From assembly GCA_963780535.1 (NCBI GenBank), contig CAWACS010000025.1, forward strand, positions 2,396 to 66,395: a stretch of 64,000 nucleotides of DNA, in the 5' to 3' direction. Below the pieces are notes generated by a model that saw only the letters and a list, made by a program, of their open reading frames with translations, had not been told where the DNA came from and ran no database searches. The position numbers and the translations under genes were made by a program. Each line of letters starts with the position of its first letter. Within the stretch, counting starts at the first letter, position 1. This DNA is from an uncultured Verrucomicrobiae bacterium (lineage in GTDB: Bacteria; Verrucomicrobiota; Verrucomicrobiia; Limisphaerales; UBA11358). This document shows, in pieces, positions 3,838 through 58,879 of the stretch.

Positions 3838-3843
3838 GTTTTT

Positions 3844-3889
3844 GTAGCGGCGGTCTGCGACCACCGCAATGCCCGCGGAGCGCCGCTAC
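3844..3889. repeat. GTAG...CTAC hairpin element between convergent genes (also a plausible bidirectional terminator)
   Basis: GTAGCGGCGGTCTGCGACCACCGCAATGCCCGCGGAGCGCCGCTAC. The outer stem GTAGCGGCG / CGCCGCTAC was read directly. Confidence 0.6.
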
Positions 3890-3897
3890 AAATAGCG

Positions 3898-4185
3898 TCA
3901 CCCGCCTTGTTCCACTGGACGCAATCGCACCAGCGTCGCGCCCCAGCCGCCAAATTGCGGATGATCCAGCGTGAAGGAAACAACTTCCGGATGTTTCGAG
4001 AGAATCGCGTGCACGGTCCGGCGCAGATTGCCGATGCCTTTGCCGTGGATGATGCGCACCTGCAGGATGCCGCGAGCCTGACACGCCGCCAGATAGTCCG
4101 GCACCAGGTCCTTCACCTCGCCCGGCTTGAACGTGTGCAAATCCAGCACTCCGTCAATCGGCAGTTCAATCGGTTCCTCAGCCAT
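3898..4185 (-). CDS. Smr domain protein
   Basis: 95 aa. LDLHTFKPGEV...LQVRIIHGKGIGNLRRTVHAILSKHPEV matches the Smr/MutS2 C-terminal nuclease domain (LDLHG and HGKG motifs). Confidence 0.8.
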   Translation of the reverse strand: MAEEPIELPIDGVLDLHTFKPGEVKDLVPDYLAACQARGILQVRIIHGKGIGNLRRTVHAILSKHPEVVSFTLDHPQFGGWGATLVRLRPVEQGG

Positions 4186-4194
4186 GTGGCTTTT

Positions 4195-4261
4195 GTAGCG
4201 GCGACTCGAAAGAGCGCCGCCAATTCTTTTTTAAATGCGGCTTTCTGCCGAAAGCCGCTAC
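4195..4261. repeat. GTAG-type double-hairpin element; its CTAC end supplies the cca stop codon
   Basis: GTAGCGGCGACTCGAAAGAGCGCCGCC - aattcttttttaaat - GCGGCTTTCTGCCGAAAGCCGCTAC. The TAG stop of cca (4258-4260, minus strand) lies in the terminal CTAC. Confidence 0.7.
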
Positions 4262-9996: not shown

Positions 9997-10581
9997 ATGA
10001 GTTCACCGACGCCATTTAATCGCCCGGCCCTGACCGAGGCGCTGGACGCCTGGAAACAACTGCTCACCGCGCGCGGTTTCGCCACCGACCTGCGCTGGAT
10101 TTTCGAGGAAAATCTATGCTTTGAAAAAGCGCGCGGCGGCAAGGACGGTTTGCACCTCGGCTTTCAGACCAAATTCACGCCGCCGCCCGAGGACGCGCTG
10201 GACATCGCGTTCGACCACTTTTGCGAGGCGGACAAGCGCATCGTGCTTTACCGGCTTGGGGAAAACGCCGGGAAATCCATTTGCGTCCTGTTGTCCGACC
10301 CGTGGTTTGAAAACAAGGGCGAAGCCGACGGCTTTTTGCGCCGGGACGAATGGCGGGTGTCGTTTCATCCCGGCCCCAAGGAGGAGATCGAGGAAATCGT
10401 CGACCTGGGCCGCTGGCTGCGCCGGGTCAAACACGGCCGCGCCTTTCACGACCTGGACTTTTCCATGACACTGGCGGCTATTGACGAAATCAAAATCCAT
10501 GGCCGCGTGCTCATGCCCTACGAACGCTTCGCCTCGACGATGCTCAACCGTCTGCGCCGTTTTTTGGGGCAACCGGCTTAA
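9997..10581 (+). CDS. hypothetical protein
   Basis: 194-aa ORF with protein-like composition, no antisense competitor of better quality, and no family recognised. Confidence 0.5.
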   Translation: MSSPTPFNRPALTEALDAWKQLLTARGFATDLRWIFEENLCFEKARGGKDGLHLGFQTKFTPPPEDALDIAFDHFCEADKRIVLYRLGENAGKSICVLLSDPWFENKGEADGFLRRDEWRVSFHPGPKEEIEEIVDLGRWLRRVKHGRAFHDLDFSMTLAAIDEIKIHGRVLMPYERFASTMLNRLRRFLGQPA

Positions 10582-10592
10582 CGGACCGATAC

Positions 10593-10725
10593 GTAGGACA
10601 GGCGTCTCGCCTGTCTCAAATTTAAAAAACTCCCGCTTGAGCCGTATTGTGAACCACGGGCCCGCCGCGTACTGGCCGGTGGCGGGTTTGCTGAAAGATG
10701 GAGACAGGCGCGACGCCTGTCCTAC
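10593..10725. repeat. GTAG-type double-hairpin element, long form (133 bp)
   Basis: GTAGGACAGGCGTCTCGCCTGTCTC at 10593-10617 and GAGACAGGCGCGACGCCTGTCCTAC at 10701-10725. Lies between convergent gene ends. Confidence 0.8.
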
Positions 10726-10749: not shown

Positions 10750-12006
10750 CTACCGCTTTCGCGGTGCAGACATCTCCGCAGGCGGCGCATTGGTGTTTGC
10801 CTGGTTTTCCTTTTTGAACGCGGAGCGCAGCAGCCAGTGATGCTTCAATCCCTGGACAAAATCGTCGGCATCTCCAACCGTTTTGGAAATGACCCCCAGC
10901 ATGTTCGTGTTGGCCTGGACCTGCGCGTTGAGGTTGCTGGTGATGCCGGCCAGTTGCAGGAGAATCGTCGTCAGATGGGTATCGGTGTTGGCGAGCAGTG
11001 TGTTGGCGTTGGTCAGGGCGCCCTGCAACTGCTCATTTCCATTGGTGCCCAGCGCCCAAACCAGCGGGCCGCCCGGCGCGCGCAGTTGTGCACTGGCGAT
11101 GGCGAGATTTGTGATCACCGGCTGCGTCTCGATGATGGTCGTGTTCAGGTTCAACGTCGCGCTGGCCGCGTTGTCCAGCACCGCGGCGAGTTTGTTCGTC
11201 AGCGCCAGCACATTCGGCAAGGCCTGCTGCACCTGCAGGACCATCGCCTGCAACTGGTCGGAGACCGGCGGTGTTTCCACGGCGCGCAGCCACGCGGTGT
11301 CATCACCCGGCTTGAAAATTTTGTAATGACGCACCCGGCCATCCCACGACGCCATAATGCGATTGCGATTGACGGTGTTGTCGTAAACGTAAAGCGAATC
11401 AGATTCAGGCTTCAATTCCGCGATACGCTCCAGATTGGTTGCATCCAGCATCGTAAAGGCGCCAAAGACCAGATTGGAACCGGCATCGAGAACATCCTGT
11501 GAGAGCTGCCATTTGCCGGGCTCTTCCATCACCAGCTCTTTCAATTCGTCAAGGGTCTTCACCGAGACCGGCTGCGTGACGACGACAGCATATCCGTTCG
11601 TCGCGCGGGTGACTTCCAATTGCCGCTGATTGAGAAATCCGGCGGCGTTGATTTTCACGTACGACCCGCCGGTCCAGATGTAGCGGAAAAAGGGGTCGCG
11701 GATTTCAAACACCACTTCGACGTTGTGCGGGTCGCGCGGCTGCATCGGGCGGACGCTGTCGATCTGCCCGACCGGAAAACCCATCATGTAAACCGGGTCG
11801 CCCACCGCCAAACCGGCCGAACTTTGAATGTAGGTGTGAAACTTCGCCTTGATGACGAACCAGCCCTTCCGCTCCGCCGTGTGGTAGAGGTAATAAACGA
11901 AGCCGAACAGCAGCAGCGCCGCCGCCAGAAAAACAAACCAACCCACGGCGCGTTCCATACGGCTCAGGCGCGTGCGCAGTTGCGGGGTCAGGTCTTGCAA
12001 GGCCAT
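10750..12006 (-). CDS. mlaD: MlaD/MCE-domain protein
   Basis: 418 aa. N-terminal TM helix, then GLAVGDPVYMMGFPVGQIDSV MCE core and a long helical Ala/Leu/Asn-rich C-terminus. Last gene of a permease-ATPase-MCE operon. Confidence 0.8.
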   Translation of the reverse strand: MALQDLTPQLRTRLSRMERAVGWFVFLAAALLLFGFVYYLYHTAERKGWFVIKAKFHTYIQSSAGLAVGDPVYMMGFPVGQIDSVRPMQPRDPHNVEVVFEIRDPFFRYIWTGGSYVKINAAGFLNQRQLEVTRATNGYAVVVTQPVSVKTLDELKELVMEEPGKWQLSQDVLDAGSNLVFGAFTMLDATNLERIAELKPESDSLYVYDNTVNRNRIMASWDGRVRHYKIFKPGDDTAWLRAVETPPVSDQLQAMVLQVQQALPNVLALTNKLAAVLDNAASATLNLNTTIIETQPVITNLAIASAQLRAPGGPLVWALGTNGNEQLQGALTNANTLLANTDTHLTTILLQLAGITSNLNAQVQANTNMLGVISKTVGDADDFVQGLKHHWLLRSAFKKENQANTNAPPAEMSAPRKR

Positions 12007-13767: not shown

Positions 13768-13830
13768 AAGCCCAGCGTAGGACTTGTGCCCCTGCCAGGT
13801 CAAAATAGTTTTTTCAAGTCATCAGGCACA

Positions 13831-15207
13831 GGGTGCATCTTGACACAGTCCTTAAGATTTAGAGAATTTAGGGGATAACGGTTCCTCGACCGGCAAAACA
13901 CAAACCATGCAAGCCGTGTCATCTAATGAAACCCATATCCAAAGTATCCAAACCGTTTCCCCGTCTGGCTGACATTGAACGGGAAGTGATGGCGGAAGCC
14001 CGCGAGTGGGGACGCCAACGACTCCAGGAACGCCTGCAAGAACTCGCCCAAGAAAGCGGCGAAGTTTTTCCCCCTCCGGCAACGGCGGCGAAGGCCTCTG
14101 AAGCTGCGCAGCGAGTTGGGTGAAGTAAAACTGACCGTTGATTACGGCCAGGACCCGCTGAGCGGCCAATGGGGTTGTCCGCTGCTTGGGGCATGGGAGT
14201 TAGGGCCGCATCAAAAGATTACCCCGGCCTACGCCCAGAAGCTCTGCTTTACCGTAACGGCCACCGGTTCCTATGAGGAGGCCGCGCAGGTGGCCAGCAC
14301 CTGGGCTCCAGAGATTGATGATTCGACCTTGCACGCGCTGGTGCAGCGGGTCGGCCAGCACGCCCAGGAACAGGCGCAGCGCCGGTATGAGCTTGCGCCG
14401 CAGGAACGCAGGCCTCAAGAGCCTGCCAGTCCGCTGGCCGTATTGATGGCCGACGGTTGCCAAATCCGCTATCGGGGTGCCGGTTGGGGCAAGCACAAAA
14501 CCCAGCAAGAGCGCGTAGAATGGCATGAATTGAAGCTGGGTGTCTTTTACCGACACGAAGCCTCCGGCCACAGCGAAGGCGGTCGTGGCCTCTTGATGGA
14601 CAAGATCGTTGTCAGTTGGCAGGAAGGGGCATTGGAACTGGGGCGGCGACTGAACTGGGAAGCTTTGAGGGAAGGGCTGGGCCGTGCCCAGCAGATGCTC
14701 TTCTTGGGAGACGGAGCCGACTGGGTGTGGAATCTCAAGCAGGATCGGTGGAAGGACGCAGTGGAACTTCTGGATTTTTACCACGGCAGCGAACACCTCT
14801 GGGATTTGGGTCGGGCGTTAAAGGGCCAAAGGGAGCCGGCACTCTCCCATTGGGTGCAACCCCTGCGACACCAACTGCGACACGGTAAGGAGAAACAAGT
14901 CTTGCGTCAGATTGCCAATCTTCAGAAACGGCGGGGGCAAACCGGAAAGGTGATCCGGCGCGAACAAGGCTACTTTCAGAACCACTCCGGTCGCATGAAC
15001 TACCAAGCAATCGCCAACCGAGGCTGGCCAATCGGGTCCGGGGCCGTCGAGTCAGCCTGCCGCCAAAAACAATGCCGCTTCAAACGCTGCGGCCAGTTCT
15101 GGACCCGAAACGGCCTTCGTAACCTCTGTGCCCTCGATGAAGCCCGTCGAAATCACCACTGGGATGAACTTTGGACCTCCAATTAAGGACAGTGTCAAGA
15201 TGCACCC
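13831..15207 (+). mobile_element. insertion sequence, ISKra4-family-like, 1377 bp
   Basis: IRL GGGTGCATCTTGACACAGTCCTTAA (13831-13855). The reverse complement of IRR (15183-15207) is GGGTGCATCTTGACACTGTCCTTAA, 24/25 identical. The 9-bp direct repeat TCAGGCACA lies at 13822-13830 and 15208-15216. Encodes a DDE-type transposase. Confidence 0.85.
13926..15186 (+). CDS. IS transposase, split over two overlapping frames (13926..14123 and 14116..15186)
   Basis: The downstream part has LMADGCQIRY, FLGDGADWVWN, FYHGSEHLW, GWPIGSGAVESACRQ-KQCRFKR, which I recall as ISKra4-type. The second frame is open from 13990. The join needs +1 and probably falls at the T5C5 run at 14065-14075. Confidence 0.7.
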
Positions 15208-15249
15208 TCAGGCACAGGGTATGTCTGAACGCACATCGAATTGAAATAA

Positions 15250-15369: not shown

Positions 15370-16137
15370 ATGTTCGCCTCGCTGCTTTCAGGTTTGCTGA
15401 ACATTGATTATCTGATTCACAACATCTGGCTGTTGTTGGTTTTTGCCTTCCAAATCTGGATGTTCGTTGACGCAATTCGGCGACAGGAATGGATTTGGGC
15501 GGTTTTCATTTTTATCGGCTGGGGAATTACGGCGTTACTTTATTTCTTCCTCGTCTATCGGGCGACACCATCCGCAACGCGTGGATTTGAACTGCCCGGC
15601 GCGCAAAGCCGCAAACGCATCAAGGAACTTCAGGCGCAAATCCATCACCTCGACAACGCTTACCACTATTTCCAACTGGGTGACGTTTATTTTCAACGCG
15701 GCCAACTGGCCGAAGCGGAAAAATGTTACCGCGCCGCGCTCGAACGGGATGCCACCGACCTTGACGCCCGCGCGCATCTGGGCCAATGCCTCGTCCGCCT
15801 GAATCGTCCAGCCGAGGCGCGGCCGTTGCTCGAAAGCGTCATGCTTGAAAAGCCCGAGCACGATTACGGCCACACGATGATGGCGCTGGCGGAAACGCTG
15901 ACCGCGCTGGGTGAAACCGACCACGCGCTTCAGTATTGGCAGCATATCACCCAGAACCATTCCTACCCGCGTGCCAAGGTGCAATTGGCCGAGCTTTATT
16001 TGGCGAGGAATCAGCCGGAGCTGGCGCGGGCGGAATTGAAGGACGTCGTCAGCGACGACCAGCATGCACCGGCCTTCCAGCGCAAACGCGACCGCGTCTG
16101 GGTCCGGCGCGCGAAAAGTTTGATGGGGAAATTGTAG
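15370..16137 (+). CDS. membrane protein with PLD-nuclease-N-terminal-like TM domain and TPR repeats
   Basis: N-terminus WMFVDAIRRQEWIWAVFIFIGWGITALLYFF (PLDc_N-like). TPR-like helices YFQLGDVYFQRGQLAEAEKCYRAALERD. The TAG stop lies inside the following repeat arm. Confidence 0.7.
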   Translation: MFASLLSGLLNIDYLIHNIWLLLVFAFQIWMFVDAIRRQEWIWAVFIFIGWGITALLYFFLVYRATPSATRGFELPGAQSRKRIKELQAQIHHLDNAYHYFQLGDVYFQRGQLAEAEKCYRAALERDATDLDARAHLGQCLVRLNRPAEARPLLESVMLEKPEHDYGHTMMALAETLTALGETDHALQYWQHITQNHSYPRAKVQLAELYLARNQPELARAELKDVVSDDQHAPAFQRKRDRVWVRRAKSLMGKL

Positions 16138-16265
16138 GACAGGCGTCGCGCCTGTCTCCGTCTTCAACCGTCACGCCATACCCGGAAATCTATGTTTTCG
16201 ATCAGGAAATGCCCGCCTCAAGGCGGCAAATCCGGAATCAGAGACAGGCGCGATGCCTGTCCTAC
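16134..16265. repeat. GTAG-type double-hairpin element, long form (132 bp)
   Basis: GTAGGACAGGCGTCGCGCCTGTCTC at 16134-16158 and GAGACAGGCGCGATGCCTGTCCTAC at 16241-16265. Confidence 0.8.
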
Positions 16266-16316: not shown

Positions 16317-17900
16317 GTGTCTAATTTAATCGCCATTGTCGGCCGCCCCAACGTCGGCAAGTCCGCCCTGTTCAACCGCATCGTCGGACGGCGCATCGCC
16401 ATCGTGCACGATCAGCCCGGCGTCACGCGCGACCGTATCAGCGCCGAGGCCGAATGGCAGGGACACGCCTTCACGCTCGTGGACACCGGCGGCATCGGTC
16501 TGTCGCGTGGCGAAAAAGCCAACGACGCCATCACCAAGGCCGCGCTGGAACAGGTGGCACTGGCCATTGAATCGGCGAACGCCATCCTCCTGGTCGTCAA
16601 CGTGCAGGAAGGCGTGGTGCCGCTCGATCGCGAGGTGGCCGAACGGCTGCGTCGCAGCGGAAAACCCATTCTGGTGGCCGCCAACAAGGTGGATACGAGC
16701 CGCGCGGAAAAGGACGCCGACGAATTTGCCGGGCTGGGTTTCGAGAAAATCTTCCCCGTCAGCGCCATTCACGGCGAGGGCATCCATGAACTGATGGAAG
16801 CGGCGATCGCCCACCTGCCCCCGTCGAGAGTCGAGAGTCGAGAGTCGAGAGCAGGTGTGCCCGATGATGGAGCACAGGCTCTCGACCCTCGACCCTCGGC
16901 CATCGGCCCTTTGAAGCTTGCGATCATCGGAAGGCCGAACGTCGGCAAGTCGTCCATTATCAATGCCTTGACACAATCGGAACGCGTCATCGTCTCGCCG
17001 ATTCCCGGCACGACGCGCGATGCGATTGACGTGCCGTTCGAGGTCGAAACGGACGGTGTGCGGCAAACGTATGTGTTGATTGACACGGCCGGCATGAGAA
17101 AGGCGCGGCGCGTGGACAATTCAATTGAATTTTTCAGCGTCCAGCGCGCGGAAGATTCCATTGCGCGTTGCGACATCGCCATCCTGGTTTTGGACGCGGA
17201 CATGGGCATCACCGAACAGGACAAAAAAATTGCCGATGTCATCGTGGAAAACCGCAAGGCCTGCATCATCGCGGTCAATAAATGGGATTTGTTCGAGCAA
17301 AATGTCCGTCAGGCCCGCGAACAGGAAATTGTCCGGCGCAACCAGAAAGAACGGCGGGAAGGACAGGAAAAGGAAATGTCCACGCTCGGCGAATTCGGCG
17401 CCTGGGTGCAGAAAAAGTTGTTCTTTCTCGACTATGCGCCCGTGATTTTCACCTCGGCCAAATCCGGTTTTCACCTCGAACGCCTGCTCGAAGCCATCCG
17501 CTACGTGAGCGCGCAGTTGCAACAAAAGATTCCGACGGCCATCCTGAACCGCACCTTGCGCGACGCCGTCGAGCGCCGTCAGCCGGTCAGTGTGATGGGA
17601 CATCGTTTGAAATTTTTCTATGCCACGCAGGTCCGGCAGGCGCCGCCGACGTTTCTGCTGTTTGTGAACCGCGACGAACTGTTGTCCGATCAATACAAAA
17701 AATATCTGACCAGCCAGATGCGGCGCGCCTTCGGCTACGAGGGTTGTCCCATCGTATTGGCGCCCAAAGCACGGCCCAAAACCATCGAGCCGGTGCGGAA
17801 ATTCAAGCCGGGACACAATCAATCAACGGAAAAGATTGACACCCACCGGAAGGCGCGGCACGAAAGATATTCCCGCGCCCGCGGGAATAAGTCGCGCTGA
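16317..17900 (+). CDS. der: ribosome biogenesis GTPase Der (EngA)
   Basis: Two GTPase domains, each with GRPNVGKS (IAIVGRPNVGKSALFNR and LAIIGRPNVGKSSIINA) and DTGG/DTAG, plus a KH-like C-terminus. Probable GTG start. Confidence 0.9.
   Translation: MSNLIAIVGRPNVGKSALFNRIVGRRIAIVHDQPGVTRDRISAEAEWQGHAFTLVDTGGIGLSRGEKANDAITKAALEQVALAIESANAILLVVNVQEGVVPLDREVAERLRRSGKPILVAANKVDTSRAEKDADEFAGLGFEKIFPVSAIHGEGIHELMEAAIAHLPPSRVESRESRAGVPDDGAQALDPRPSAIGPLKLAIIGRPNVGKSSIINALTQSERVIVSPIPGTTRDAIDVPFEVETDGVRQTYVLIDTAGMRKARRVDNSIEFFSVQRAEDSIARCDIAILVLDADMGITEQDKKIADVIVENRKACIIAVNKWDLFEQNVRQAREQEIVRRNQKERREGQEKEMSTLGEFGAWVQKKLFFLDYAPVIFTSAKSGFHLERLLEAIRYVSAQLQQKIPTAILNRTLRDAVERRQPVSVMGHRLKFFYATQVRQAPPTFLLFVNRDELLSDQYKKYLTSQMRRAFGYEGCPIVLAPKARPKTIEPVRKFKPGHNQSTEKIDTHRKARHERYSRARGNKSR
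16823..16899. repeat. heptamer-stem hairpin inside der (inter-domain linker)
   Basis: (TCGAGAG)x4 at 16824-16851, a 29-nt loop, then (CTCGACC)x2.7 at 16881-16899. The arms are complementary except for one position per unit. Translated as SRVESRESRAGVPDDGAQALDPRPS. Confidence 0.75.
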
Positions 17901-36156: not shown

Positions 36157-38700
36157 TCATTCGCGGACCGTCGCGCCGAGATTCTGTTTGAACTGCGCCA
36201 CGAGTTTTTCATGCGCCACGTTCACCTCGGCGTCGGTCAAGGTCTTTTCCGGCGAGCGATAGGTAAAGGTGTAGGCCATGCTCTTCTGCCCTTGCGGCAC
36301 GTTCTGGCCGCGGAACACATCGAACAACTCGATTGCCTCCAGGTTGGCCGGTTTCGCCTGTTTCACAACTTGCAGCACGGCGTCGTGGGTCGTTGCCTCC
36401 GGCACGAGCATGGCCACGTCGCGACGGATCGTCGGGAACTGCGGCAACGGCTTGAACGATTTGGCCGGGTTCCGCCGCGCCAGCAGCAAATCGAGATTCA
36501 GTTCCGCCAGCCACACGGCGTCGCGCAAATCGTATCGCTTCGCAAGCGCCGGGGTGAGCTGGCCGAATTCGCCCAGCATCTGCTTGCCCAGCTGAATCAT
36601 GGCCGATTCAAGGAACCATTCCGACGGATCGGAACGCCGGTTGAAGGTCATTCCGCGCAAACCGAATTGGTCAAAAAACTCCTCCAGCACCCCCTTCAAA
36701 TCATGGGCGTCAAACTTTGCATCGCGGCCCTCACCGCTCCAGAATGGTGGCTGGCGCCGGCCCGTCAACGCGATCGCCACCCGGCGTTCCTCACGTGACT
36801 TTCCGTTCCCCTGCGCAAATACCCGCCCGATCTCAAACAACGCCACGTCGTAATTTTTGCGACTAAGGTTGTGCTGCACCGAATGAATCAATCCAGGCAG
36901 CAGGCTCGGCCGGAGGACATCCATGTCCGAACTCAACGGATTCGCCAGGGCTACAATTTCCACACTCGACACTCGACACTCGACACTCGACACCAGAGTT
37001 TGTCCCTGCGCCTCATTCAATCCCAGCCCGCTCAGGATCCGCCGCGCTTCGGCTATCTGGTCATGGACCGAATCGAACGCATTGGCGCCGATCGCGCCGC
37101 GTGGCGGGGTGGCGGGAATTTTTTCGACACCGTGCAACCGGGCAACCTCCTCAATCAGATCCACCTCGCGTTTGAGGTCCACCCGGAATGTCGGAATTTG
37201 AATTGTGATCGGCTCCGGCGGACCGCCCGATCCGACCGGACGCGCCTTGCGATTCACGGCCTTCAAACCGAGCTGACCGAGGTAAAACTCACATTCCTCC
37301 GGTTTGAGCTGGATGCCCAGCAGTTCATTCACCTTGTGATGTCGGAGGGTAATTTGCTTTGGCTCAACCGGTTTTGGATAAACGTCCACAACGCCGTCGA
37401 CCGGCTGGCCGCCGGCCGTTTCCAGAATCAACTGCGCGCAACGCTGGCTGGCCCAGTCGCAGATGCCGATGTCCGCGCCGCGCTCGAACCGGTAGCTGGA
37501 CTCGCTGCGCAGACCGAGCGCCTTGCTTGTGCGCCGGATGTTGGTCGGTGAGAAATAGGCGCTCTCGATAAGCACATCCGTGGTCTGCCCGTTGATTTCC
37601 GTGTTCTGACCGCCCATGACGCCGGCCAATGCGATGCCCTTTTGCCCGTCGGCGATCAACAGCATTTCGTTCGTGAGCGTGCGTTCGAGGTTATCGAGCG
37701 TCTTGAATTTTTCGCCGGCAGCGGCCCGGCGAACGATGATCGTAGGACGGGCATCCTGCCTGTCTCCATCTTTTTCGTTTGAAGTTTGAGACCGGCGCGA
37801 CGCCTGTCCTACGAGATGATAATCAAACGCGTGCAACGGCTGGCCGGTTTCCAGCATGACGTAATTGGTCACGTCCACGATATTGTTGATGCTCCGAAAT
37901 CCCACTTTCTCCAGCGTCGAGCGCAGCCAGTCGGGGCTGGGCCCAACCTTCACGCCCTTGACGACGCGCGCCGTGTAACGCGGGCAAAGTTCGGCGTCTT
38001 CGATGCGCACGGATACGAGGTCTTCACAGCGCAGGTCAGGTGTCGCGCCTGACTCTAATTTGTTTTTTCCAGTTTGAGACAGGCGGGACGCCTGGCCTGC
38101 GGTAACGTCGGGCATCTTCAGTTTGTTGCCCGTCACCGCCGCGATTTCGCGGGCGATGACGATGACGCTGTTCCAGTCCGGCCGGTTGGGCGTGATTTCC
38201 AAATCGTAAATCACGTCACCACCCGCGCGGCCAAGATATTCGGCAAACGGTTTTCCGATGGGAGCGTCCTGGGGGAGAATCAGCAGCCCGTCCACGTTAT
38301 CGGGCAGGCCGAGTTCCTGCGGCGAACACATCATGCCCTGGCTGGTGATGCCGAAAACCTTCCGTTCCTTGATGACGAACGGTTCTTTTTCACCGGGTTT
38401 CAGCGGCAGCGCGAAGTTCGGCAGGATGAGCGGGACTTTGTCGCCGACATTGTGGTTCTGCGCGCCACAGATGATCATGCGCTCGCCCTTGCCATCGTTG
38501 ACCTTGCAGACCGTCAGCTTGTCCGAGCCGGGCACCTTGTCCTTGGTGAGGATTTGGGCGATGACGATGCCTTCAAACTCGCCGCCCAATTTATGGACAC
38601 CCTCGGCTTCGAGACCGAGCATGGTGAGCCGTTCGGTCAATTCCTCGGGAGACCAGTCGAAATCAACGTATTGTCTGAGCCAGTTGAACGTGACTTTCAT
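36157..38700 (-). CDS. pheT: phenylalanine--tRNA ligase beta subunit
   Basis: [16 protein letters not shown] start, tRNA-binding, B3/4, B5 and FDX-ACB regions recognisable ([28 protein letters not shown]). The ORF extends to 38883, but its N-terminal 61 aa look non-coding. Confidence 0.9.
36962..36994. repeat. 33-nt heptamer array (ACACTCG x4.7) in frame in pheT
   Basis: Four full units plus a 5-nt partial unit, read directly. Translated on the minus strand as [12 protein letters not shown]. Confidence 0.85.
37742..37812. repeat. GTAG-type double-hairpin element, short form, in frame in pheT
   Basis: GTAGGACGGGCATCCTGCCTGTCTC - 21 nt - GAGACCGGCGCGACGCCTGTCCTAC. Translated as [24 protein letters not shown]. 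Confidence 0.85.
38031..38100. repeat. GTAG-type double-hairpin element, degenerate short form, in frame in pheT
   Basis: GCAGGTCAGGTGTCGCGCCTGACTC - 20 nt - GAGACAGGCGGGACGCCTGGCCTGC. The left arm is 21/25 to the consensus. Translated as [22 protein letters not shown]. Confidence 0.75.
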
Positions 38701-38888
38701 CGGGACGGCCACGTTAAACAGGTTGCCCCGGCCAGTCAATGCCCTGAGTTCCGGCCAAAACCGGCAACCGGTTCGGCGCCTGGATTTCGCAATCCGGTCG
38801 GATGAACTCGCTGGAATTATCCGGGAAATCTGCGATATTGGTTGCGCCGTTTTGTCCTGATGTATTTTGAGATGTCGCACCAAGTCGT

Positions 38889-39518
38889 ATGAAGTTGGAA
38901 GGAGTCATAAAATTTCACGTCGAGCATGAGACGGAGGCTGGCTGCGGGGAATCGGAAATCGTGGAATTGACGAAATGGAGAAAAGAACTGCGGACGGCAG
39001 GTCTGGTCGGACAGGATTTGGCCCGATACGGAGGTTTGGGGTTCGGCAATTTGTCAAAACGGCTGGACGACGGAACTTTTTTGATCACCGCCAGCCAGAC
39101 CGGCCATTGGGAGACATTAACCCCGGACGGATACGCCCGAATCACGGACTTCGACCCCGGCCAGAACCTCGTCCGGTCAAAAGGAATGAATCATCCCTCT
39201 TCGGAAACAATGACGCATCTTGCCGCCTACGGTTCAAATCCGCGCGTCCAATTTGTGTTTCACGCCCACAGTCCGGAAATCTGGAACGCCAGGGATGACC
39301 TGGACCTTCCCGTCACCGACCCGGGCATTGAATGTGGCACCGTGGAGATGTTTTACGAGGTGCAGCGGCTGCTCCAAAACCGCGACAATTACTTGAAAGG
39401 CATTCTGGCGATGGGCGGCCACACGGACGGAATCCTGGCTTGGGGAGAATCCGCGAATGCAGCGGGCATCAGTCTCCTGTTTCTCCTGTCCCGGGCCACC
39501 CGCGCCATTCCACGGTGA
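38889..39518 (+). CDS. class II aldolase/adducin-domain-like protein
   Basis: [22 protein letters not shown]...[13 protein letters not shown]...VFHAHS fits the GN(I/L)S..R, PSSE..H, H.H pattern of class II aldolase folds. Confidence 0.6.
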
Positions 39519-39565
39519 CCAGCCGTAACCGACGTATCGCTAGAGCCAGTTGAAGGCACTTTCAT
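39506..39565 (-). pseudogene. decayed duplicate of the first ~60 nt of pheT
   Basis: The reverse complement atgaaagtgccttcaactggctctagcgatacgtcggttacggctggtcaccgtggaatg aligns with the pheT start atgaaagtcacgttcaactggctcagacaatacgttgatttcgactggtctcccgaggaa. 45/60 identical with one 1-nt gap, by hand. Confidence 0.65.
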
Positions 39566-39575
39566 TTCGTTCGGA

Positions 39576-40238
39576 TTACGCCTCTTTTTTTGCGAGCCAG
39601 AATTCTTTCACCTTCTCGAACTTCCCGATGCGTTTGTTAATTTTGACAATTTCACGCGGGTAAAATTGGAGAACATTGTCACAAAATTCCAACATCCAGG
39701 AGCGGCGCGTTTTTGTGGAATCAATTTCAATATGCTTGGAGTTCGCAATTTGAATCTGCCCCGCACCCAGCGCGCCAAGTGTCAGACAGCTCCATTTCAA
39801 ATGCTCGATTGGAACAAAGTGAACTTTGCTCACATTCACTTTCGTGCCAGTGACGCTATATTTCACCATCAACATGACAAAGAAATTGGTGTCATCTTCG
39901 TAAAAGCGCGCCAACCGATCCACCGAAGTCAGGTTTGGCATGTTGAACGCCGTTTCTTCGCGGTGAGTCTTCACGTCCACAACGTAATAATTCGCGAGTT
40001 TGTCTTTGAATGCTAAATCAGCCATCGCACGTCTTGCAAAACTGGCTGAATACTCGCCACCATGCTCGCCGAGCATTTCTTCAAAATTGTCCTCAATGAT
40101 AGATTGCACGGCGTCGCCAGCCGCACGGGTGCTTTCAGCAGTGTCAGCGGAGAGAAAATCGGCCCGCTCATTTAGCAAACGCAGAACTTTCTTCTCGATT
40201 GTTTTGTATGCGCCCGAAGTAAAGATGGGGGATTTCAT
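39576..40238 (-). CDS. putative type II restriction endonuclease (PD-(D/E)XK)
   Basis: 220 aa. Overlaps the upstream methyltransferase gene by 4 nt. Low GC. Candidate catalytic pattern ...MADLAF...YYVVDVKTH (D...D-x-K). No named enzyme recognised. Confidence 0.5.
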   Translation of the reverse strand: MKSPIFTSGAYKTIEKKVLRLLNERADFLSADTAESTRAAGDAVQSIIEDNFEEMLGEHGGEYSASFARRAMADLAFKDKLANYYVVDVKTHREETAFNMPNLTSVDRLARFYEDDTNFFVMLMVKYSVTGTKVNVSKVHFVPIEHLKWSCLTLGALGAGQIQIANSKHIEIDSTKTRRSWMLEFCDNVLQFYPREIVKINKRIGKFEKVKEFWLAKKEA

Positions 40239-41263
40239 TTCCTTTGCTTCGCGTGGACCTTGTACGGGGCAGAACTTTCAAATAAAGCCGGTTGAAGCGA
40301 TAAATCTGTTTTCCCTTCTCGCGTTTGCATATTCAAAGTATTTCGCTCCCAAAAAACGCCGCCCGAATATCCTTGAATGCTTTTGTCGAACTCCGCCAAT
40401 TCGATACGCTTGGCGGCCCAACAAGCATAAGTCTCATTCAACTCGATGCCCAAAAAGCGCCGCCCGAGTTTTTTAGCCACTACTGGGACAGTTCCTGATC
40501 CAAGAAACGGGTCAAAAACAAAATCACCTTCGCGCGAACTGGCAAGGATCAATTTGGCAACCAGTTTTTCCGGCTTTTGCGTCGGATGGTCGGTGTTTTC
40601 CGGCATTGACCAAAACGGCACGGTCAAATCCGTCCAAAGATTCGATGGATGCGTTAGTCGAAAGTCGCCCTCATGCGTTTCTTCCCAATCTTTTGGGGAA
40701 CCGTTTTCTTTGTAAGGCGCGATGACCTTGCGTTTGAGTTTTACAGTCTCAACGTCGAAATAAAAATCGTCTGACACCGTGCAAAACCAGATGTCTTCAC
40801 TCGCGTTTTTCCAATTTGCCTTTGCACCGCGTCCTTTTTCGCGCTCCCAGGTTATCCGATTTCGAACAATGACGTGGCGTTCCAACACACGATGCAATGC
40901 CGCCGAGGATTTCCAGTCGCCACAAACGTAAATTGTCGCAGTGCGCCTGAGCACGGGAAGCATTTTTAGAAACCAACTTTCAAACCAACTTTCATATTCC
41001 GCCAGCGTCATTTCTTGAAAAGTCTCAGTGCCAAATTTTTTCGTCAGGTTGTAGGGTGGATCGAGGATTAATAAATCAACAAAATCTTTGGGCAATTCGG
41101 AACAAACCGCAAAAGTGTCACCATGGATGACCTGATTGGATAATTTGTGCGCGTCCGCCGGCACTGGTGAACGTAAAAGTTGACTTGCATAGGAAACCGC
41201 TTCTAACTCCGATAATTCCAATGTGCGATTGCGAGGCGCTCGTTGTTTTGTGGTCATATGCAT
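40235..41263 (-). CDS. beta-class N6-adenine/N4-cytosine DNA methyltransferase
   Basis: Motif IV LILDPPYNL precedes motif I FVFDPFLGSGT. HPTQKPEKL is typical of the PF01555 family. Sample lines give 42-43% G+C. Confidence 0.85.
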   Translation of the reverse strand: MHMTTKQRAPRNRTLELSELEAVSYASQLLRSPVPADAHKLSNQVIHGDTFAVCSELPKDFVDLLILDPPYNLTKKFGTETFQEMTLAEYESWFESWFLKMLPVLRRTATIYVCGDWKSSAALHRVLERHVIVRNRITWEREKGRGAKANWKNASEDIWFCTVSDDFYFDVETVKLKRKVIAPYKENGSPKDWEETHEGDFRLTHPSNLWTDLTVPFWSMPENTDHPTQKPEKLVAKLILASSREGDFVFDPFLGSGTVPVVAKKLGRRFLGIELNETYACWAAKRIELAEFDKSIQGYSGGVFWERNTLNMQTREGKTDLSLQPALFESSAPYKVHAKQRK

Positions 41264-41341
41264 TGATGAAACTAAATCACTTCTTCGCCGTTTCCGCGAG
41301 TCATTTCATAAACACGTTTCTCTTTGGTCTGCCTCCACCAA

Positions 41342-42403
41342 TTAAAACTGTTTCAAAAACCGCACGTCGTTTTCGTAAAAGAGGCGGATGTCATTGATGC
41401 CGTAGCGAATCATGGCGATGCGCTCGATCCCGAAGCCAAAGGCCCAGCCGGTCCAGATTTCCGGGTCGTAACCGACGTTCTCGAACACCTGCGGATGCAC
41501 CATGCCGCAGCCGGCAATTTCCAGCCATTCCTTGCCCAGTTTTTTCACCAGCGCATTGCTGAAATCAATCTCGAAGCTCGGCTCGGTGTAGCTGAAGTAA
41601 TGCGGGCGGAACCGGATTTTGGTCTCTTCGCCGAGCAGTTCCTTGAAGACAAATTCGACCGTGCCCTTGAGGTCGCCCACGGTGACGTTTTTGTCCACGT
41701 AAAGCCCTTCGATCTGCTGAAAGGTCGGGTTGTGCGTGGCGTCGGCATTATCACGGCGGTAAACGCGACCGGGAACGATGATGCGAATCGGCGGCGGCTG
41801 TTTCTCCATGACGCGGATTTGCACGGAACTGGTGTGGGTTCGAAGCAGTAGGGCAGGCGTCGCGCCTGCCTCTGACTTTTTGTCTTCTGAAGTTTGAGAC
41901 AGGCGCGACGCCTGTCCTACGCCGAGATAGAACGTATCCTGGCTATCGCGAGCTGGATGGTCGGCGGGCGTGTTCAGCGCGTCGAAGCAGTAATACTCGT
42001 CCTCAATTTCCGGGCCGTCAGCGACGACAAAACCGATTTTGCGGAAGCTGCGAACGATGTCCTCGGTGACCTGCGTCAGCGGATGGAGTTTGCCGAGCGC
42101 GCGGCGGCGTCCGGGCGCGCTGAAATCGGTTGGCTCCTTCGGCAACGCGGCTGCCAGCTCCAGTTCATCGCGACGTTCAGCCAGCGCGGCTTCAAGCCCG
42201 GCCTTGGCGGCGTTGATGAGCTTGCCCGCGGCAGGCTTTTCCTCCTTCGACAGCGTGCCGAGCTGTTTCATCAGCGCGGTAAATTTGCCATGCGGCCCAA
42301 TCCACGCGCCCTTGGTTTGTTCGAGCGCGGCGAGATCCGGCGCGGCTTTCAACTCAGCCAGCGCGGCTTGCTTGAGGGGTTCAATGTCATCCAGCAAGGA
42401 CAT
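41342..42403 (-). CDS. pheS: phenylalanine--tRNA ligase alpha subunit
   Basis: HPLTQV, HPARDSQDTFY, LLRTHTSSVQIR, FRPHYFSYTEPS, GCGMVHP and FGFGIERIAM class II aaRS motifs. Confidence 0.9.
   Translation of the reverse strand: MSLLDDIEPLKQAALAELKAAPDLAALEQTKGAWIGPHGKFTALMKQLGTLSKEEKPAAGKLINAAKAGLEAALAERRDELELAAALPKEPTDFSAPGRRRALGKLHPLTQVTEDIVRSFRKIGFVVADGPEIEDEYYCFDALNTPADHPARDSQDTFYLGVGQASRLSQTSEDKKSEAGATPALLLRTHTSSVQIRVMEKQPPPIRIIVPGRVYRRDNADATHNPTFQQIEGLYVDKNVTVGDLKGTVEFVFKELLGEETKIRFRPHYFSYTEPSFEIDFSNALVKKLGKEWLEIAGCGMVHPQVFENVGYDPEIWTGWAFGFGIERIAMIRYGINDIRLFYENDVRFLKQF
41848..41920. repeat. GTAG-type double-hairpin element, short form, in frame in pheS
   Basis: GTAGGGCAGGCGTCGCGCCTGCCTC - 23 nt - GAGACAGGCGCGACGCCTGTCCTAC. 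Translated as [23 protein letters not shown], between DTFYL and LLRTHTS. Confidence 0.85.
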
Positions 42404-55390: not shown

Positions 55391-56041
55391 ATGAGAATCC
55401 TGATTGTTGAAGACGAACCTGATTTGCTCCGCAGCCTGGCCCAGGCGTTGCGCGAGGAGGGTTACGCCGTGGACACTGCCAATAATGGCGAGGACGGCCT
55501 CTTCAAGGCGGAAAATTTCGACTACGACGCCGTCGTGCTGGACGTGATGCTGCCCAAACTCGATGGCTGGGAAATCCTCAAACGTCTCCGTAAATCCAAA
55601 AAGACGCCAGTGCTGATGCTGACCGCGCGCGACCAGACGCGGGATCGGGTCAAGGGGCTCGACACCGGCGCGGACGATTACATGGTCAAGCCGTTTGATT
55701 TACCGGAGTTGTCTGCCCGGTTGCGCGCCCTCATCCGCCGCAGCGCGAATCTGACCACCAACCTCATTGAAATCGGCGATGTGAAAATTGACACCGCGGC
55801 GCGCAAGGTGTTCCGGGCCGAAAAACCCGTCGAGCTGACCGCACGCGAATACGCGCTACTGGAATTTCTCGCGTTGCACCGGGGCGAAGTGGTCACGCGC
55901 ACGCAGCTTTACGAACATCTGTTTGATGAAAACGACAGCACCCTTTCCAACCTGCTGGACGTTCATGTCTCCAATCTCCGCAAAAAACTGGGCGCGGAAT
56001 TCATCGTCACCCGCCGCGGCCACGGCTATTGCATCGAATGA
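55391..56041 (+). CDS. OmpR-family response regulator
   Basis: MRILIVEDEPDL, DAVVLDVMLPKLDGWE, winged-helix end RRGHGYCIE. Confidence 0.9.
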   Translation: MRILIVEDEPDLLRSLAQALREEGYAVDTANNGEDGLFKAENFDYDAVVLDVMLPKLDGWEILKRLRKSKKTPVLMLTARDQTRDRVKGLDTGADDYMVKPFDLPELSARLRALIRRSANLTTNLIEIGDVKIDTAARKVFRAEKPVELTAREYALLEFLALHRGEVVTRTQLYEHLFDENDSTLSNLLDVHVSNLRKKLGAEFIVTRRGHGYCIE

Positions 56042-57609
56042 AGATTTTCAAATCCATCAAGTGGCGGTTGCAGCTCTGGTACGGGCTCATTCTGGTACTG
56101 GTACTGGCTGGCTTCGGTTTCACGGCCTATCAACTCGAGTGGGGACGGCAGATGCGCCAAATTGATGAAGAATTACAACACCGTTTTGGTGTCATAGCCA
56201 ATGCCCTTCGTCCGCCGCCCCGAGGACCGGATTTCGGTGGGCACCCTTTCGGGTCTCCGCCGCCAGACCAATACCCGGATGAGGCGCCCCCCCCGCACCA
56301 TGCGGGACCGCCGGTCGAATTCCATCTGCCGCCGTTATCCACCCATCTGTTTGATACAAATGATTCAACTGGGTTTTATTTTGTTATCGAGTCAAGAGAC
56401 GGCAGGGAAATCGCACGGGGTGGCAATGTGCCAAAATCTGCCAGTGCAAGACTCACCAGGGTTTACAAATCGTTTCAGAAAGCGGGTTTCATATCACCGG
56501 AACCGGCTACAAACCCTCCTGCACCGCCACCGGCTATAACATTAACTGAAGTTGTAATCATGACCCACTCGGCTGCCAATCCTCTCAACCCACCACCGGG
56601 ACAAACGTCTTTGGATTTTCGGGAAATTGTTCAAATCTTGCCGTCGGGGGACAGTATTTTGGTCGGCTGTCCCATCTCACCGCAATTGACAGAACTTCAC
56701 CACACGGCCTTCAAACTCGCTGCCGTTGGCGCTGGCATTCTCCTGCTGGGTCTCGCCGGCGGCGGGTGGCTGGTCGGGCGTGCGCTCCGGCCCATTGATG
56801 GCATCAGCGCCGCCGCCGTGAAAATTTCCGCCGGCGATTTATCACAGCGCATCAACGTGGCTGAGACCGAAAGCGAACTGGGCAAACTGGCCGCGGTCTT
56901 GAATTCCACCTTCGCCCGGCTCGAGGCCGCCTTCGCGCAGCAACAGCAATTCACCGCCGACGCCGCCCACGAACTGCGCACGCCCGTTTCTGTGATGCTC
57001 ACGCAAACGCAGACCGCCTTGACCCGCGAGCGCACCGCCGCCGAATACCGGGAAACGATCGAGGCCTGCCAGCGGGCGTCCCAGCGGATGCGCCGGTTGA
57101 TGGAATCGCTGCTGGAACTGGCGCGGCTGGACGCAGGCCAGGAATCCCTGAAGCGGGTGCGCTTTGATTTTTCAAAAACGGTTGCTGATGCCGTTGAATT
57201 GGTCCGTCCGCTGGCCGAAGAACGCGGCGTGAAGATTCTCCCCGAGCTGGGGTCGCTGGAAATCACCGGTGATTCCGAGCGGCTGGCACAGGTCATCGCC
57301 AACCTGCTGGCCAACGCCATCCAGTACAACCCATCCGGCGGCGAAGTGCGCTTGAAATTGGAATCACAACCCGGACTGGCGGTGCTGACCGTTGCCGATA
57401 CGGGACCGGGAATTTCCAACGAAGATTTGCCCCACGTGTTTGAACGATTCTATCGCGGAGACAAATCGCGTACCGCCTCTCATGGCAACGCCGGGCTGGG
57501 GCTGGCTATTTCAGAGGCCATTGTCGAAGCTCACAGCGGCACGATTGAAGTGGCCAGCCAAACCGGGACGGGAACGACTTTTACCGTGCGGTTGCCGGCG
57601 GGAGTTTGA
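56038..57609 (+). CDS. sensor histidine kinase (HAMP-HisKA-HATPase) with Pro-rich periplasmic domain
   Basis: ATGA overlap with the response regulator gene. H-box FTADAAHELRTPVS. N/G boxes NLLANAIQY, DTGPGI, GLGLAI. Confidence 0.85.
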   Translation: MKIFKSIKWRLQLWYGLILVLVLAGFGFTAYQLEWGRQMRQIDEELQHRFGVIANALRPPPRGPDFGGHPFGSPPPDQYPDEAPPPHHAGPPVEFHLPPLSTHLFDTNDSTGFYFVIESRDGREIARGGNVPKSASARLTRVYKSFQKAGFISPEPATNPPAPPPAITLTEVVIMTHSAANPLNPPPGQTSLDFREIVQILPSGDSILVGCPISPQLTELHHTAFKLAAVGAGILLLGLAGGGWLVGRALRPIDGISAAAVKISAGDLSQRINVAETESELGKLAAVLNSTFARLEAAFAQQQQFTADAAHELRTPVSVMLTQTQTALTRERTAAEYRETIEACQRASQRMRRLMESLLELARLDAGQESLKRVRFDFSKTVADAVELVRPLAEERGVKILPELGSLEITGDSERLAQVIANLLANAIQYNPSGGEVRLKLESQPGLAVLTVADTGPGISNEDLPHVFERFYRGDKSRTASHGNAGLGLAISEAIVEAHSGTIEVASQTGTGTTFTVRLPAGV

Positions 57610-57615
57610 CTCAAG

Positions 57616-57695
57616 GTAGGGCGGCGCTGCTGCGCCGCCTGATTTTCCGCAGTCTCTGGAGGTAAGATTGCGGCAGAGCGGCAGCTCTGCCCTAC
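57616..57695. repeat. GTAG-type double-hairpin element between convergent genes
   Basis: GTAGGGCGGCGCTGCTGCGCCGCC ... GGCAGAGCGGCAGCTCTGCCCTAC. Each arm is its own hairpin, but the two arms are not complementary to each other. Confidence 0.65.
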
Positions 57696-57703
57696 CTGAA
57701 AAT

Positions 57704-58879
57704 TCAACGCAGGAACAGTTCCGCTGCAGCATCGGCGAAGCGCAGTCCCTGCCGCGTGAGATGAAAGCCTTCCGGCGAAATGTCCGCCCAACCGCGACCG
57801 GCCAGTTGGTTCATGTCCGCCGCCCATTCCCGGCGCAAATTGAAGCCGGTCGTGCGCTGGAATTCCGCAAACGGCCAGCCGGCCACCAGGCGCAAACCGA
57901 ACGCGGCAGTTTCGCCGGCGCGTTTGAGCGGCGGCAGTTCCTCGCGGGATTCGATGGCGCGTTTTCCTTTTTCCAACTGCTCGCAGTAAAGCTGCGTGTT
58001 CGCCCAGTTTTTCGTCCGCACACCGCGCACATACCCGGTCGCGCTCGGCCCCAGCCCGTAAAATGAACCGCCTCGCCAGTAGTTGACGTTGTGCCGGCAG
58101 GCGAAATCGGGGAGTTCGGAGTTCGGAGTTCGGAGTTCGGAGCGATGGCGCGCAAAATTGGCAATTTCGTACTGATGAAAACCGGCGGCGGTCGCACGCT
58201 CGATCATTTCCTCATACATCGCACAGGCCAGGTCCTCATCCACGTCGAATTCGCCGGCCTGCAGTTGCGCAAACAGCGGGGTGTCGTCCTCGTAAATGAC
58301 TTCGTAACTGGACAGGTGTTCGCTGCCCAGGGCCAGGACCTCGTCCAGGGTGGCCCGCCAGACCTCCAGCGTCTGGCCGGGAATTGCAAACATCAGGTCG
58401 AGGTTCAGGTTGTCGAAACCGGCCTGGCGGAGAAGGTCGAATGATTTGAAGACCATCGCGCGCGAATGAATCCGGCCCAACCGGTCGAGCAAGGCCTCGT
58501 TGAGTGACTGGACGCCCATGGAAACGCGGTTGACGCCAAAATCACGAAACAATTTTGCCTTGTCAGCCGAGACGGTGGCGGGGTTGCATTCGACGGTGAA
58601 CTCCTCCGCGCCGAGCAGGTTCAAGCGTTCCATGGCCTGGAGGATTTGTTGCCACTGGCGGAGGTTGAGCAGTGACGGCGTGCCGCCACCGAAGAAAATC
58701 GTTTTGGGCCTGAGATCGTCCGCGACGATTTCCATTTCACGGATCAAAGCGGCAACGTAACGGTTGATGAGTTCGCCGCTGGACGGTTCGGAGTAAAATG
58801 CGCAATACGCGCATTTTTGCGCGCAAAACGGCACATGAAAATAAAGACCGGCAATTCGCGTTTCCTTTGAATCCGCCAT
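57704..58879 (-). CDS. hemW: radical SAM heme chaperone HemW (coproporphyrinogen III oxidase-like)
   Basis: LYFHVPFCAQKCAYCAF (CxxxCxxC), GVNRVSMGVQS, YEIANFA...CRHNVNYW. Confidence 0.85.
   Translation of the reverse strand: MADSKETRIAGLYFHVPFCAQKCAYCAFYSEPSSGELINRYVAALIREMEIVADDLRPKTIFFGGGTPSLLNLRQWQQILQAMERLNLLGAEEFTVECNPATVSADKAKLFRDFGVNRVSMGVQSLNEALLDRLGRIHSRAMVFKSFDLLRQAGFDNLNLDLMFAIPGQTLEVWRATLDEVLALGSEHLSSYEVIYEDDTPLFAQLQAGEFDVDEDLACAMYEEMIERATAAGFHQYEIANFARHRSELRTPNSELPDFACRHNVNYWRGGSFYGLGPSATGYVRGVRTKNWANTQLYCEQLEKGKRAIESREELPPLKRAGETAAFGLRLVAGWPFAEFQRTTGFNLRREWAADMNQLAGRGWADISPEGFHLTRQGLRFADAAAELFLR
58111..58143. repeat. 33-nt heptamer array (GGAGTTC x4.7) in frame in hemW
   Basis: Four full units plus a 5-nt partial unit, read directly. 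Translated on the minus strand as SELRTPNSELP. Confidence 0.85.

Follow-up and report, generated by a model that had tools for sequence, protein, structure and literature searches.

How can palindromic repeat DNA come to lie in frame within the genes of an essential enzyme, and on what terms is it kept there? This question is raised by a 64,000-nucleotide stretch of contig CAWACS010000025.1 (positions 2,396 to 66,395; hereafter the window), which belongs to an uncultured Verrucomicrobiae bacterium (GCA_963780535.1). Both subunit genes of its phenylalanyl-tRNA synthetase (PheRS) carry palindromic segments of about 70 bp, one in pheS and two in pheT. An earlier note on this DNA had drawn attention to the three segments and had set them beside the Rickettsia palindromic elements (RPE). 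They are probably dimers of a GTAG-headed repetitive extragenic palindrome (REP) that became fixed, with the frame kept, in loops where PheRS tolerates extra length, and that are carried there as near-neutral passengers.

All three segments lie on the minus strand. The first was found at 37742-37812 in pheT (site A; 71 bp with a 21-nt spacer, encoding a 24-residue peptide), the second at 38031-38100 in the same gene (site B; 70 bp, 20-nt spacer, 22 residues), this copy being more decayed, and the third at 41848-41920 in pheS (73 bp, 23-nt spacer, 24 residues), so that the coordinates and the 20-23-nt spacers given by the earlier note are those of the sequence. When the window was searched with the 25-nt arm GAGACAGGCGCGACGCCTGTCCTAC, 8 matches with at most 3 mismatches were found versus 0.00 expected from 100 shuffles, and at up to 4-5 mismatches the search returned exactly 10 arms, which make up five dimers, and no other match. 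The two remaining dimers are intergenic; one, of 133 bp, is situated at 10593-10725 between the convergent open reading frames (ORFs) 9997-10581 (plus strand) and 10750-12006 (minus strand), and the other, of 132 bp, at 16134-16265 upstream of der. In the window, then, the short dimers are those in genes and the long ones those between genes. Every arm is laid out as GTAG-GACAGGCG-TCG-CGCCTGTC, with an 8-bp GC-rich stem and a 3-nt loop; the GTAG head is kept in eight of the ten arms, and the other two, which read GCAG, are both arms of the site B copy. All five copies are head-out inverted pairs (GTAG...CTAC) with spacers of 20-23 or about 82 nt. Each arm forms a hairpin of its own and the two arms of a dimer also pair with one another, as had been proposed and as the folds bear out: the RNAs of the short dimers fold at -35.7, -36.0 and -51.2 kcal/mol, with z-scores of -6.4 to -11 and none of 200 shuffles equal.

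Long and short forms have in common the arms and the sub-terminal motifs CCATCT and AGTT/AGTCA, and the interior of the long dimers, about 80 nt, is constant in length and poorly conserved in sequence between genomes. Among the short dimers an asymmetric spacer (AAACTT...AGATG), matching the layout of the long copies, is present only at site A, and the spacers of pheS and of pheT site B are roughly symmetric (AAACTT...AAGTCA and AAACTG...AAATTA, respectively). The earlier observation that the copies share one orientation relative to the coding strand carries little information, as the element is nearly its own reverse complement and only the spacer sets a polarity. No target-site duplication was detected when the flanks of the five copies were compared, nor when filled alleles were compared with empty ones, and no convincing target-site motif was seen at the junctions, the base 5' of the element being C in 6 of the 9 inspected.

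The host frames are intact. The pheT gene (36157-38700, minus strand, two dimers) encodes a beta subunit of 847 aa starting at MKVTFNWL and matching the Pfam families B3_4, B5, tRNA_synthFbeta, FDX-ACB and tRNA_bind, and pheS (41342-42403, minus strand, one dimer) encodes an alpha subunit of 353 aa that matches tRNA-synt_2d (E 4e-97). As previously described, the copies lie in long uninterrupted ORFs, and the three peptides were recovered exactly; full-length Pfam matches are found on both sides of each insert, with the frame kept. Since 70, 71 and 73 nt are not multiples of three and conserved motifs stand in frame on both sides, the segments cannot be skipped and must be translated. The resulting peptides, of 22-24 residues, are hydrophilic and of low complexity. 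The left arm is read in all three short copies as V/A-G-Q-A-S-R, and the right arm is read in two frames (EAGATPAL/SGATPDL versus DRQDARPT), which is expected of a DNA repeat and not of a protein motif. A PheT identical to that of the window (P0121) is encoded on a public contig of 76,294 bp, and the close homologues of PheS and PheT, labelled Verrucomicrobiota, Limisphaerales or Verrucomicrobiia, are all from metagenome-assembled genomes (MAGs).

Comparison of the pheS-pheT regions of relatives, codon by codon and from independent assemblies, revealed filled and empty alleles of the same sites. Site A is empty in L001, whose PheT is 92% identical (loop IVKGRDGKPT), and in L004, the empty loop being of 10 residues with the pattern I(V/A)(K/R)G(R/K)DGKP(T/A); in L003, with an 87% identical protein, the element is present as in the window. 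At site B the element is present in L001. A GAAGTCA heptamer repeat codes there, in L003 and L004, for a short loop, S/RSQKSEVRT, which is found in 25-29 of about 120 homologues. In PheS, the element is again present in L001, and L003 has an unrelated loop of 15 residues. Close relatives are thus polymorphic for its presence, and the same peptides are not general among them. The intergenic copies, the two frames of the right arm and the close orthologues that lack the element at each site uphold the earlier claim that this is a DNA repeat. As the source is evidently a metagenome-assembled contig and the close matches are all MAGs, one might ask whether the segments are artefacts of assembly or binning. 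The same insertions occur at the same codons in independent assemblies from other samples (L001, L002, L003, P0122 and P0125), with frames intact and downstream motifs in frame, which shows that they are not an assembly artefact; we give an artefact of either kind practically no chance. The segments are inserted repeat DNA, neither a protein motif nor an artefact. We also considered whether the loop AKGKDGK of some empty site A alleles, which resembles ..KGKDGD.. of the filled ones, might be a decayed REP remnant. This candidate was rejected: the DNA of the empty loop is not palindromic and folds at -8 to -15 kcal/mol, and the KDGD of the filled allele derives from the element's own CATCT sub-terminal motif. 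The likeness was treated as a coincidence, which is not proven.

The anatomy of the copies points to one class of repeat. In 2011 Bertels and Rainey reportedly described REP/REPIN elements as associated with REP-associated tyrosine transposases (RAYTs). The segments would be short doublets, similar to REPINs, of a repetitive palindrome that has a GTAG head and belongs to the REP/RAYT class. Members of this class are regarded as non-autonomous single-strand DNA elements that depend for their movement on a RAYT acting in trans; RAYTs are HUH/Y1 transposases of the IS200/IS605 type. The GTAG and CGTC superfamilies of REPs were defined by Di Nocera, De Gregorio and Rocco (BMC Genomics 2013, PMC3733652). 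Like the GTAG REPs in general (Nunvar et al. 2010, PMC2817692; Di Nocera et al. 2013, PMC3733652), the copies in the window are built of units of 20-40 nt with a conserved GTAG (or GTRG/GYAG) head followed by a GC-rich stem-loop of 6-9 bp, form inverted pairs that enclose a spacer of 20-100 bp and fold into a larger hairpin, leave no target duplication, coexist with other families in the same genome and, where intergenic, lie by the 3' ends of ORFs. Three of the five copies are intragenic although 'extragenic' is part of the family name, a known exception that applies especially to Verrucomicrobia (PMC3733652).

When species-representative genomes were scanned with GTAGGRCAGGCGNNNCGCCTGYC, this REP was found at no fewer than 119 loci, most of them in Verrucomicrobiota and others in Acidobacteriota, cyanobacteria, Nitrospirota, Planctomycetota and more. 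Single units and tandem arrays occur there, as do homodimers, and heterodimers in which the partner is another GTAG...CTAC unit; this is how REPs typically behave. In two genomes the same REP flanks a RAYT gene. In Cylindrospermum sp. NIES-4074 (L007, AP018269.1) inverted copies, GTAGGACAGGCG...CGCCTGTC, are located at 3613-3635 and 4205-4227 on either side of a gene (3659-4189) for a 177-aa Y1/HUH transposase (Pfam Y1_Tnp, 31 bits). The other genome, L038, is a verrucomicrobial MAG with a RAYT-like ORF (phmmer E 2e-19; 22 bits in Pfam, below the cut-off of 23) between direct copies, each of which comes first in a REP heterodimer. Relative to the RAYT of L038, the L007 transposase has a 16-residue insert, DGWEVNRRDACSTEYW, which includes the REP-type peptide RRDACST and is possibly a REP unit in frame in its own transposase gene.

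A conventional MITE, a miniature transposable element of the inverted-repeat type, RPE-like, with terminal inverted repeats and a DDE transposase and unrelated to RAYTs, would likewise have terminal inverted arms of 25 nt and a size of 70-133 bp, and would fit a window without a RAYT. Such an element is very improbable indeed, as target-site duplication is missing at all five copies, each arm is itself a GTAG-headed hairpin, the anatomy recognised by RAYTs, and the behaviour of the arm elsewhere, including the flanking of RAYT genes in L007 and L038, is that of a REP. A transposase-like ORF does lie nearby (14116-15186, 356 aa), but it is bracketed by 26-bp inverted repeats of its own (13830-13855 and 15183-15208, 96% complementary) which are unrelated to the REP arms; this unit looks like an insertion sequence.

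If the segments are REP dimers, where in the protein did they land? In PheS the insert follows DTFY(L) and precedes LLRTHTS. Only five residues, FDTTR, separate DTFW from LLRTQTS in E. coli PheS (3PCO), in keeping with the earlier note, and a HMMER alignment leaves a gap of 21 residues opposite the insert. In Thermus thermophilus PheS (1B70), however, a native segment of about 20 residues, TGEGFRLEGPLGEEVEGR, occupies this position; the contrast between 5 residues in E. coli and about 20 in Thermus indicates that the position is tolerant of length in nature. The Thermus loop (1B70/1PYS) is like that of the window in its position between motif 1 and motif 2 and in its extra length, but it does not come from palindromic repeat DNA as far as known, and illustrates a tolerance of about 20 residues only. 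In PheT, site A immediately follows HAFDYHL, within the B3/B4 domain, and site B is in the linker that follows the N-terminal domains and just precedes B3/B4; aligned with Pseudomonas aeruginosa PheT (4P71), site A falls at the turn into which HAFD leads and site B at the linker ahead of B3/B4, both of them short in the solved proteins. We take the His of HAFD to be an editing-site residue in E. coli PheRS. Judging by the alignment to PDB chains, all three sites are length-variable loops, and the loops would be surface-exposed.

It was further asked how these loops fare across the clade. In 119 PheS homologues (85-94% identical) the loop is of 15-44 residues, and none has the short loop of E. 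coli. About 58 of them carry REP peptides of the V(G/A)Q(A/P)S type and 53 a SPSP..GEG..GEGRGE peptide, which is encoded by a different palindrome, with 8 others; loops coded by heptamer repeats also fill the site in some relatives. Among 121 PheT sequences (that of the window and 120 homologues), site A has the empty loop in 31, and the rest fall into at least 8 peptide classes. The loops of L124 and L125 are encoded by GTAG/GTGG-headed palindromic dimers of different sequence. In about 120 relatives, then, these three loops are filled by palindromic repeats of at least 8 other families or by heptamer repeats, or are left without any. On a neighbour-joining tree of 120 PheT sequences with both sites masked, which is a rough tree and may be affected by recombination, Fitch parsimony required a minimum of 54 changes of class at site A and 53 at site B, and of changes between empty and filled states 28 and 17, respectively. 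Turnover of the loops is nonetheless clearly fast.

Such turnover bears on the possibility that the peptides benefit PheRS, for example as new loops for interaction or solubility that arose from repeat DNA and are now kept by selection on the protein. That the minimal five-residue PheS loop is found in no member of the clade, together with the hydrophilic nature of the peptides, could be taken to favour it. The loop sequences, however, are wholly different between close relatives, the same DNA is read in different frames in different copies, identical DNA is intergenic elsewhere, and the three nucleotide differences between the site A elements of the window and L003 are all non-synonymous, so that we regard selection for these peptides as very unlikely.

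The picture that emerges for REP dimers as near-neutral passengers would be as follows. Copies would have inserted into pheS and pheT, or taken the place of repeat DNA already present in them, at the PheS loop that leads from the strand after motif 1 to the LLRTHTS strand, at the turn of the B3/B4 hairpin and at the linker ahead of B3/B4. They would survive where the element is stop-free in the frame used, where the net change in length keeps the frame and where the position is tolerant of length. Transcribed and translated as loops of 22-24 residues, they would most likely be near-neutral for the enzyme, and the RAYT of the host genome would be expected to be flanked by GTAGGACAGGCGTCGCGCCTGTC.

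Several results weigh against this account. Regex and phmmer searches detected no RAYT gene in the 64-kb window, and it is for this reason that we can only infer RAYT mobilisation in this organism. In a scan of metagenomes with a RAYT alignment, which gave 80 loci, the exact REP lay within 260 bp of none of 76 metagenomic RAYT loci; these metagenomic relatives have sister GTAG REPs on their flanks. AlphaFold2 models of PheS and PheT, built with 40-41 close homologues aligned, reached a mean predicted local distance difference test score of 44.6 and 44.8, respectively, and are too poor to show exposure of the loops. The alleles also disagree with a simple insertion. At site A 71 nt stand where the resident loop had 29 nt (+42), site B has gained 51 nt net, and at both the resident sequence is missing; plain transposition does not explain the replacement of the loop and the restoration of the frame. 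Judged against the empty alleles, the element has not been cleanly inserted as a whole but stands in place of the resident loop. Finally, comparison of the window with L003 gives 96% identity for the site A element and 83% for its flanks (Fisher p = 0.003), which could reflect recent spread, gene conversion or selection on the hairpin, the last of which would count against pure neutrality.

The last point is also the ground for the main rival, in which the hairpins are kept for a role in pheST mRNA or DNA, such as ribosome pausing, RNase processing or stabilisation, or gyrase- or IHF-type binding, with the peptide as a by-product. Besides the conservation of the site A dimer, whose only differences all change the amino acid, the very stable predicted RNA hairpins noted above would agree with such a role, and RNA and DNA roles of REPs were discussed by Di Nocera et al. 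(PMC3733652). The site B copy, on the other hand, has diverged like its flanks (88.6% versus 88.8% identity) and has lost its GTAG heads, and many close relatives are without the element or have unrelated repeats in its place, which is unexpected for a required regulatory structure; recent insertion or gene conversion would explain the high identity at site A equally well. We consider a retained RNA or DNA function unlikely. The fixation of REP dimers as passengers seems to be the better reading of the three loops.

Is the placement of short dimers within genes peculiar to PheRS? The count covered every dimer of this REP in the window and in the loci fetched, a short dimer being one of at most 92 bp. 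A long open frame spans 16 of 25 short dimers versus 1 of 18 longer ones (Fisher p = 1e-4), and the split is retained when the window and its orthologous copies in L001 are left out (p = 0.0035). Nine of ten spanning frames tested were real genes by Pfam, the hosts being A2M, CofH/MqnC, an AIR-synthase-like protein, a regulator propeller, an N6 methylase, DUF5107/TPR, a ClpB-like protein, an aminotransferase and LeuRS. Short in-frame dimers are frequent in other genomes as well. To our knowledge, size classes of short intragenic and long intergenic REPs have not been described before. Long intergenic dimers of 130-134 bp were seen in L014, L050, L064, L098, L106 and L111 as well as in both window copies. 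The dimer at 16134-16265 provides a stop codon: ORF 15370-16137, whose product ends ...MGKL, is terminated by the TAG (16135-16137) in the GTAG head of the dimer.

The phenomenon itself has been reported. Intragenic REPs were described in several species, and those of the GTAG superfamily were most numerous in the verrucomicrobium Opitutus terrae, where more than half of the intragenic GTAG REPs are dimers or groups coding for 20-30 residues and some ORFs are hit twice (PMC3733652). The hosts of in-frame REPs include the tRNA synthetases GlyRS and IleRS, and Additional file 3 of that work holds about 70 O. terrae entries, with peptides such as HGRHARAT, GRDARAT and GTGVPPV. Like these, the copies described here are in-frame dimers of 20-30 residues with similar peptides, in the same phylum, in a tRNA synthetase and in part in a twice-hit ORF. 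They differ in belonging to another REP family and another host order (the window coming from relatives of Limisphaerales/Pedosphaera), and in that PheS and PheT are absent from the published list of hosts (PMC3733652). As in-frame GTAG REP dimers are already in print, the present case adds to a known phenomenon, and it is less noteworthy than was first supposed, although the case of PheRS had not been listed. Di Nocera et al. (PMC3733652) made no clade-wide comparison of orthologues and so did not report recurrent use of loops. What is possibly new is the recurrent, hot-spot use of the same loops, the split between short copies in genes and long ones between genes, and whole RAYT genes in frame in housekeeping genes; we found no description of clade-wide hot-spot use, of the size split or of in-frame RAYT genes in the literature searched.

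The Rickettsia elements, which the earlier note had named as precedent, are a more distant parallel than the GTAG-tagged REP/RAYT superfamily. RPE were reportedly found by Ogata and colleagues, in 2000, to lie in frame in genes that stay functional. They resemble the window's copies in being palindromic repeats in frame in functional host genes, thought to occupy surface loops, and differ in their alphaproteobacterial hosts. RPE-1 is also longer, at over 100 bp, and we know of no link between RPE and RAYTs. The short intragenic R. conorii repeats RPE-4 and RPE-6 were assigned to the CGTC-tagged class and not to GTAG (PMC3733652), whereas the arms of the window end in GTAG/CTAC. The analogy is therefore one of function, not of family.

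Whole transposase domains may also lie in frame within host genes. In L038 (97-2340; VFJO01000280.1, Verrucomicrobia bacterium Bin_73_16) a stop-free frame encodes ValRS, with the locus ending at 2340 and the 3' part unseen, and between GHRIPVWY and DVLDTWFSS it holds an in-frame REP dimer, a RAYT-like domain with the motifs HVHAV and YVETNAARAGL, and further REP units, so that an entire REP-RAYT-REP unit lies within an aaRS gene. When proteins were searched with this segment, many called proteins were found in which PF01797 is combined with host domains. Internal insertions were found in ValRS (P0360, and P0241, which is L206:3231-6477) and in a Zn alcohol dehydrogenase of the cultured Fimbriimonas ginsengisoli (P0301; ADH_N 24-123, Y1_Tnp 278-324, ADH_zinc_N 444-515), and C-terminal fusions to the complete domains Dtd (P0256, L207:2501-3754) and SpeD (P0264), bridged by REP-coded peptides. 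No paper on in-frame RAYT fusions was found in the literature searched. Some of these cases may be gene-calling read-through across stop-free REPs, and the ValRS of L206 is split into three called genes, possibly by sequencing frameshifts. We put forward tentatively, as an idea that is less likely than not, that a few flexible loops of essential housekeeping enzymes might be recurrent 'safe-harbour' landing pads for REP/RAYT in Verrucomicrobiota and neighbouring phyla, with a short, stop-free form of the element (about 70 bp) as the one present in genes and with the transposase also placed in frame in, or fused to, host genes in an intein-like manner. If this were true, a HUH transposase would be expressed on the back of a host gene and be hard to delete, and, if both hot-spot use and in-frame RAYT genes hold, there would be a bearing on how REP/RAYT choose their targets and persist.

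Two further consequences concern annotation and the evolution of proteins. REP-coded segments inflate protein lengths and give rise to spurious low-complexity 'motifs' and false hypothetical ORFs across thousands of verrucomicrobial MAGs. The roughly 120 relatives, in turn, amount to an unusually clear natural experiment on how loops of an essential enzyme tolerate 15-45 random residues and how quickly these turn over, one tolerant site being directly downstream of the HAFD motif of the editing domain.

Other repeats are present in the window. A 79-bp palindromic insert of another family, without a GTAG head, is located at 4959-5037 (minus strand) in ORF 4258-5661, which encodes a CCA-adding enzyme/poly(A) polymerase; its arms are 92% complementary, it folds at -56.8 kcal/mol (z -6.1), and it is the fourth in-frame palindrome of the window, translated as ..GAPASCRRVSEFANLQNAGRMPGLP.. 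and breaking up the PolyA_pol_RNAbd domain. Within the der/engA ORF (16317-17900), at 16825-16905, a tandem of the heptamer CGAGAGT runs into an inverted copy of itself; it is translated as SRVESRESRAGVPDDGAQALDPRPS, in the linker that joins Der's two GTPase domains. An 80-bp heterodimer, GTAGGGCGGCGCTGCTGCGCCGCC ... GGCAGAGCGGCAGCTCTGCCCTAC, represents a second family of GTAG REPs, at 57616-57695 between the convergent ORFs 56029-57609 (plus) and 57704-58879 (minus), which is a classic extragenic REP position.

The region between pheS and pheT (38889-41263) is itself a variable cargo site. In the window it contains a class II aldolase-like gene (38889-39518, plus strand), a 220-aa ORF without a Pfam match (39576-40238, minus strand) and an N6/N4 DNA methylase (40235-41263, minus strand), the last two of which look like a restriction-modification pair; in relatives the same region is taken up by a carbonic anhydrase, a PIN-toxin pair or other small ORFs.

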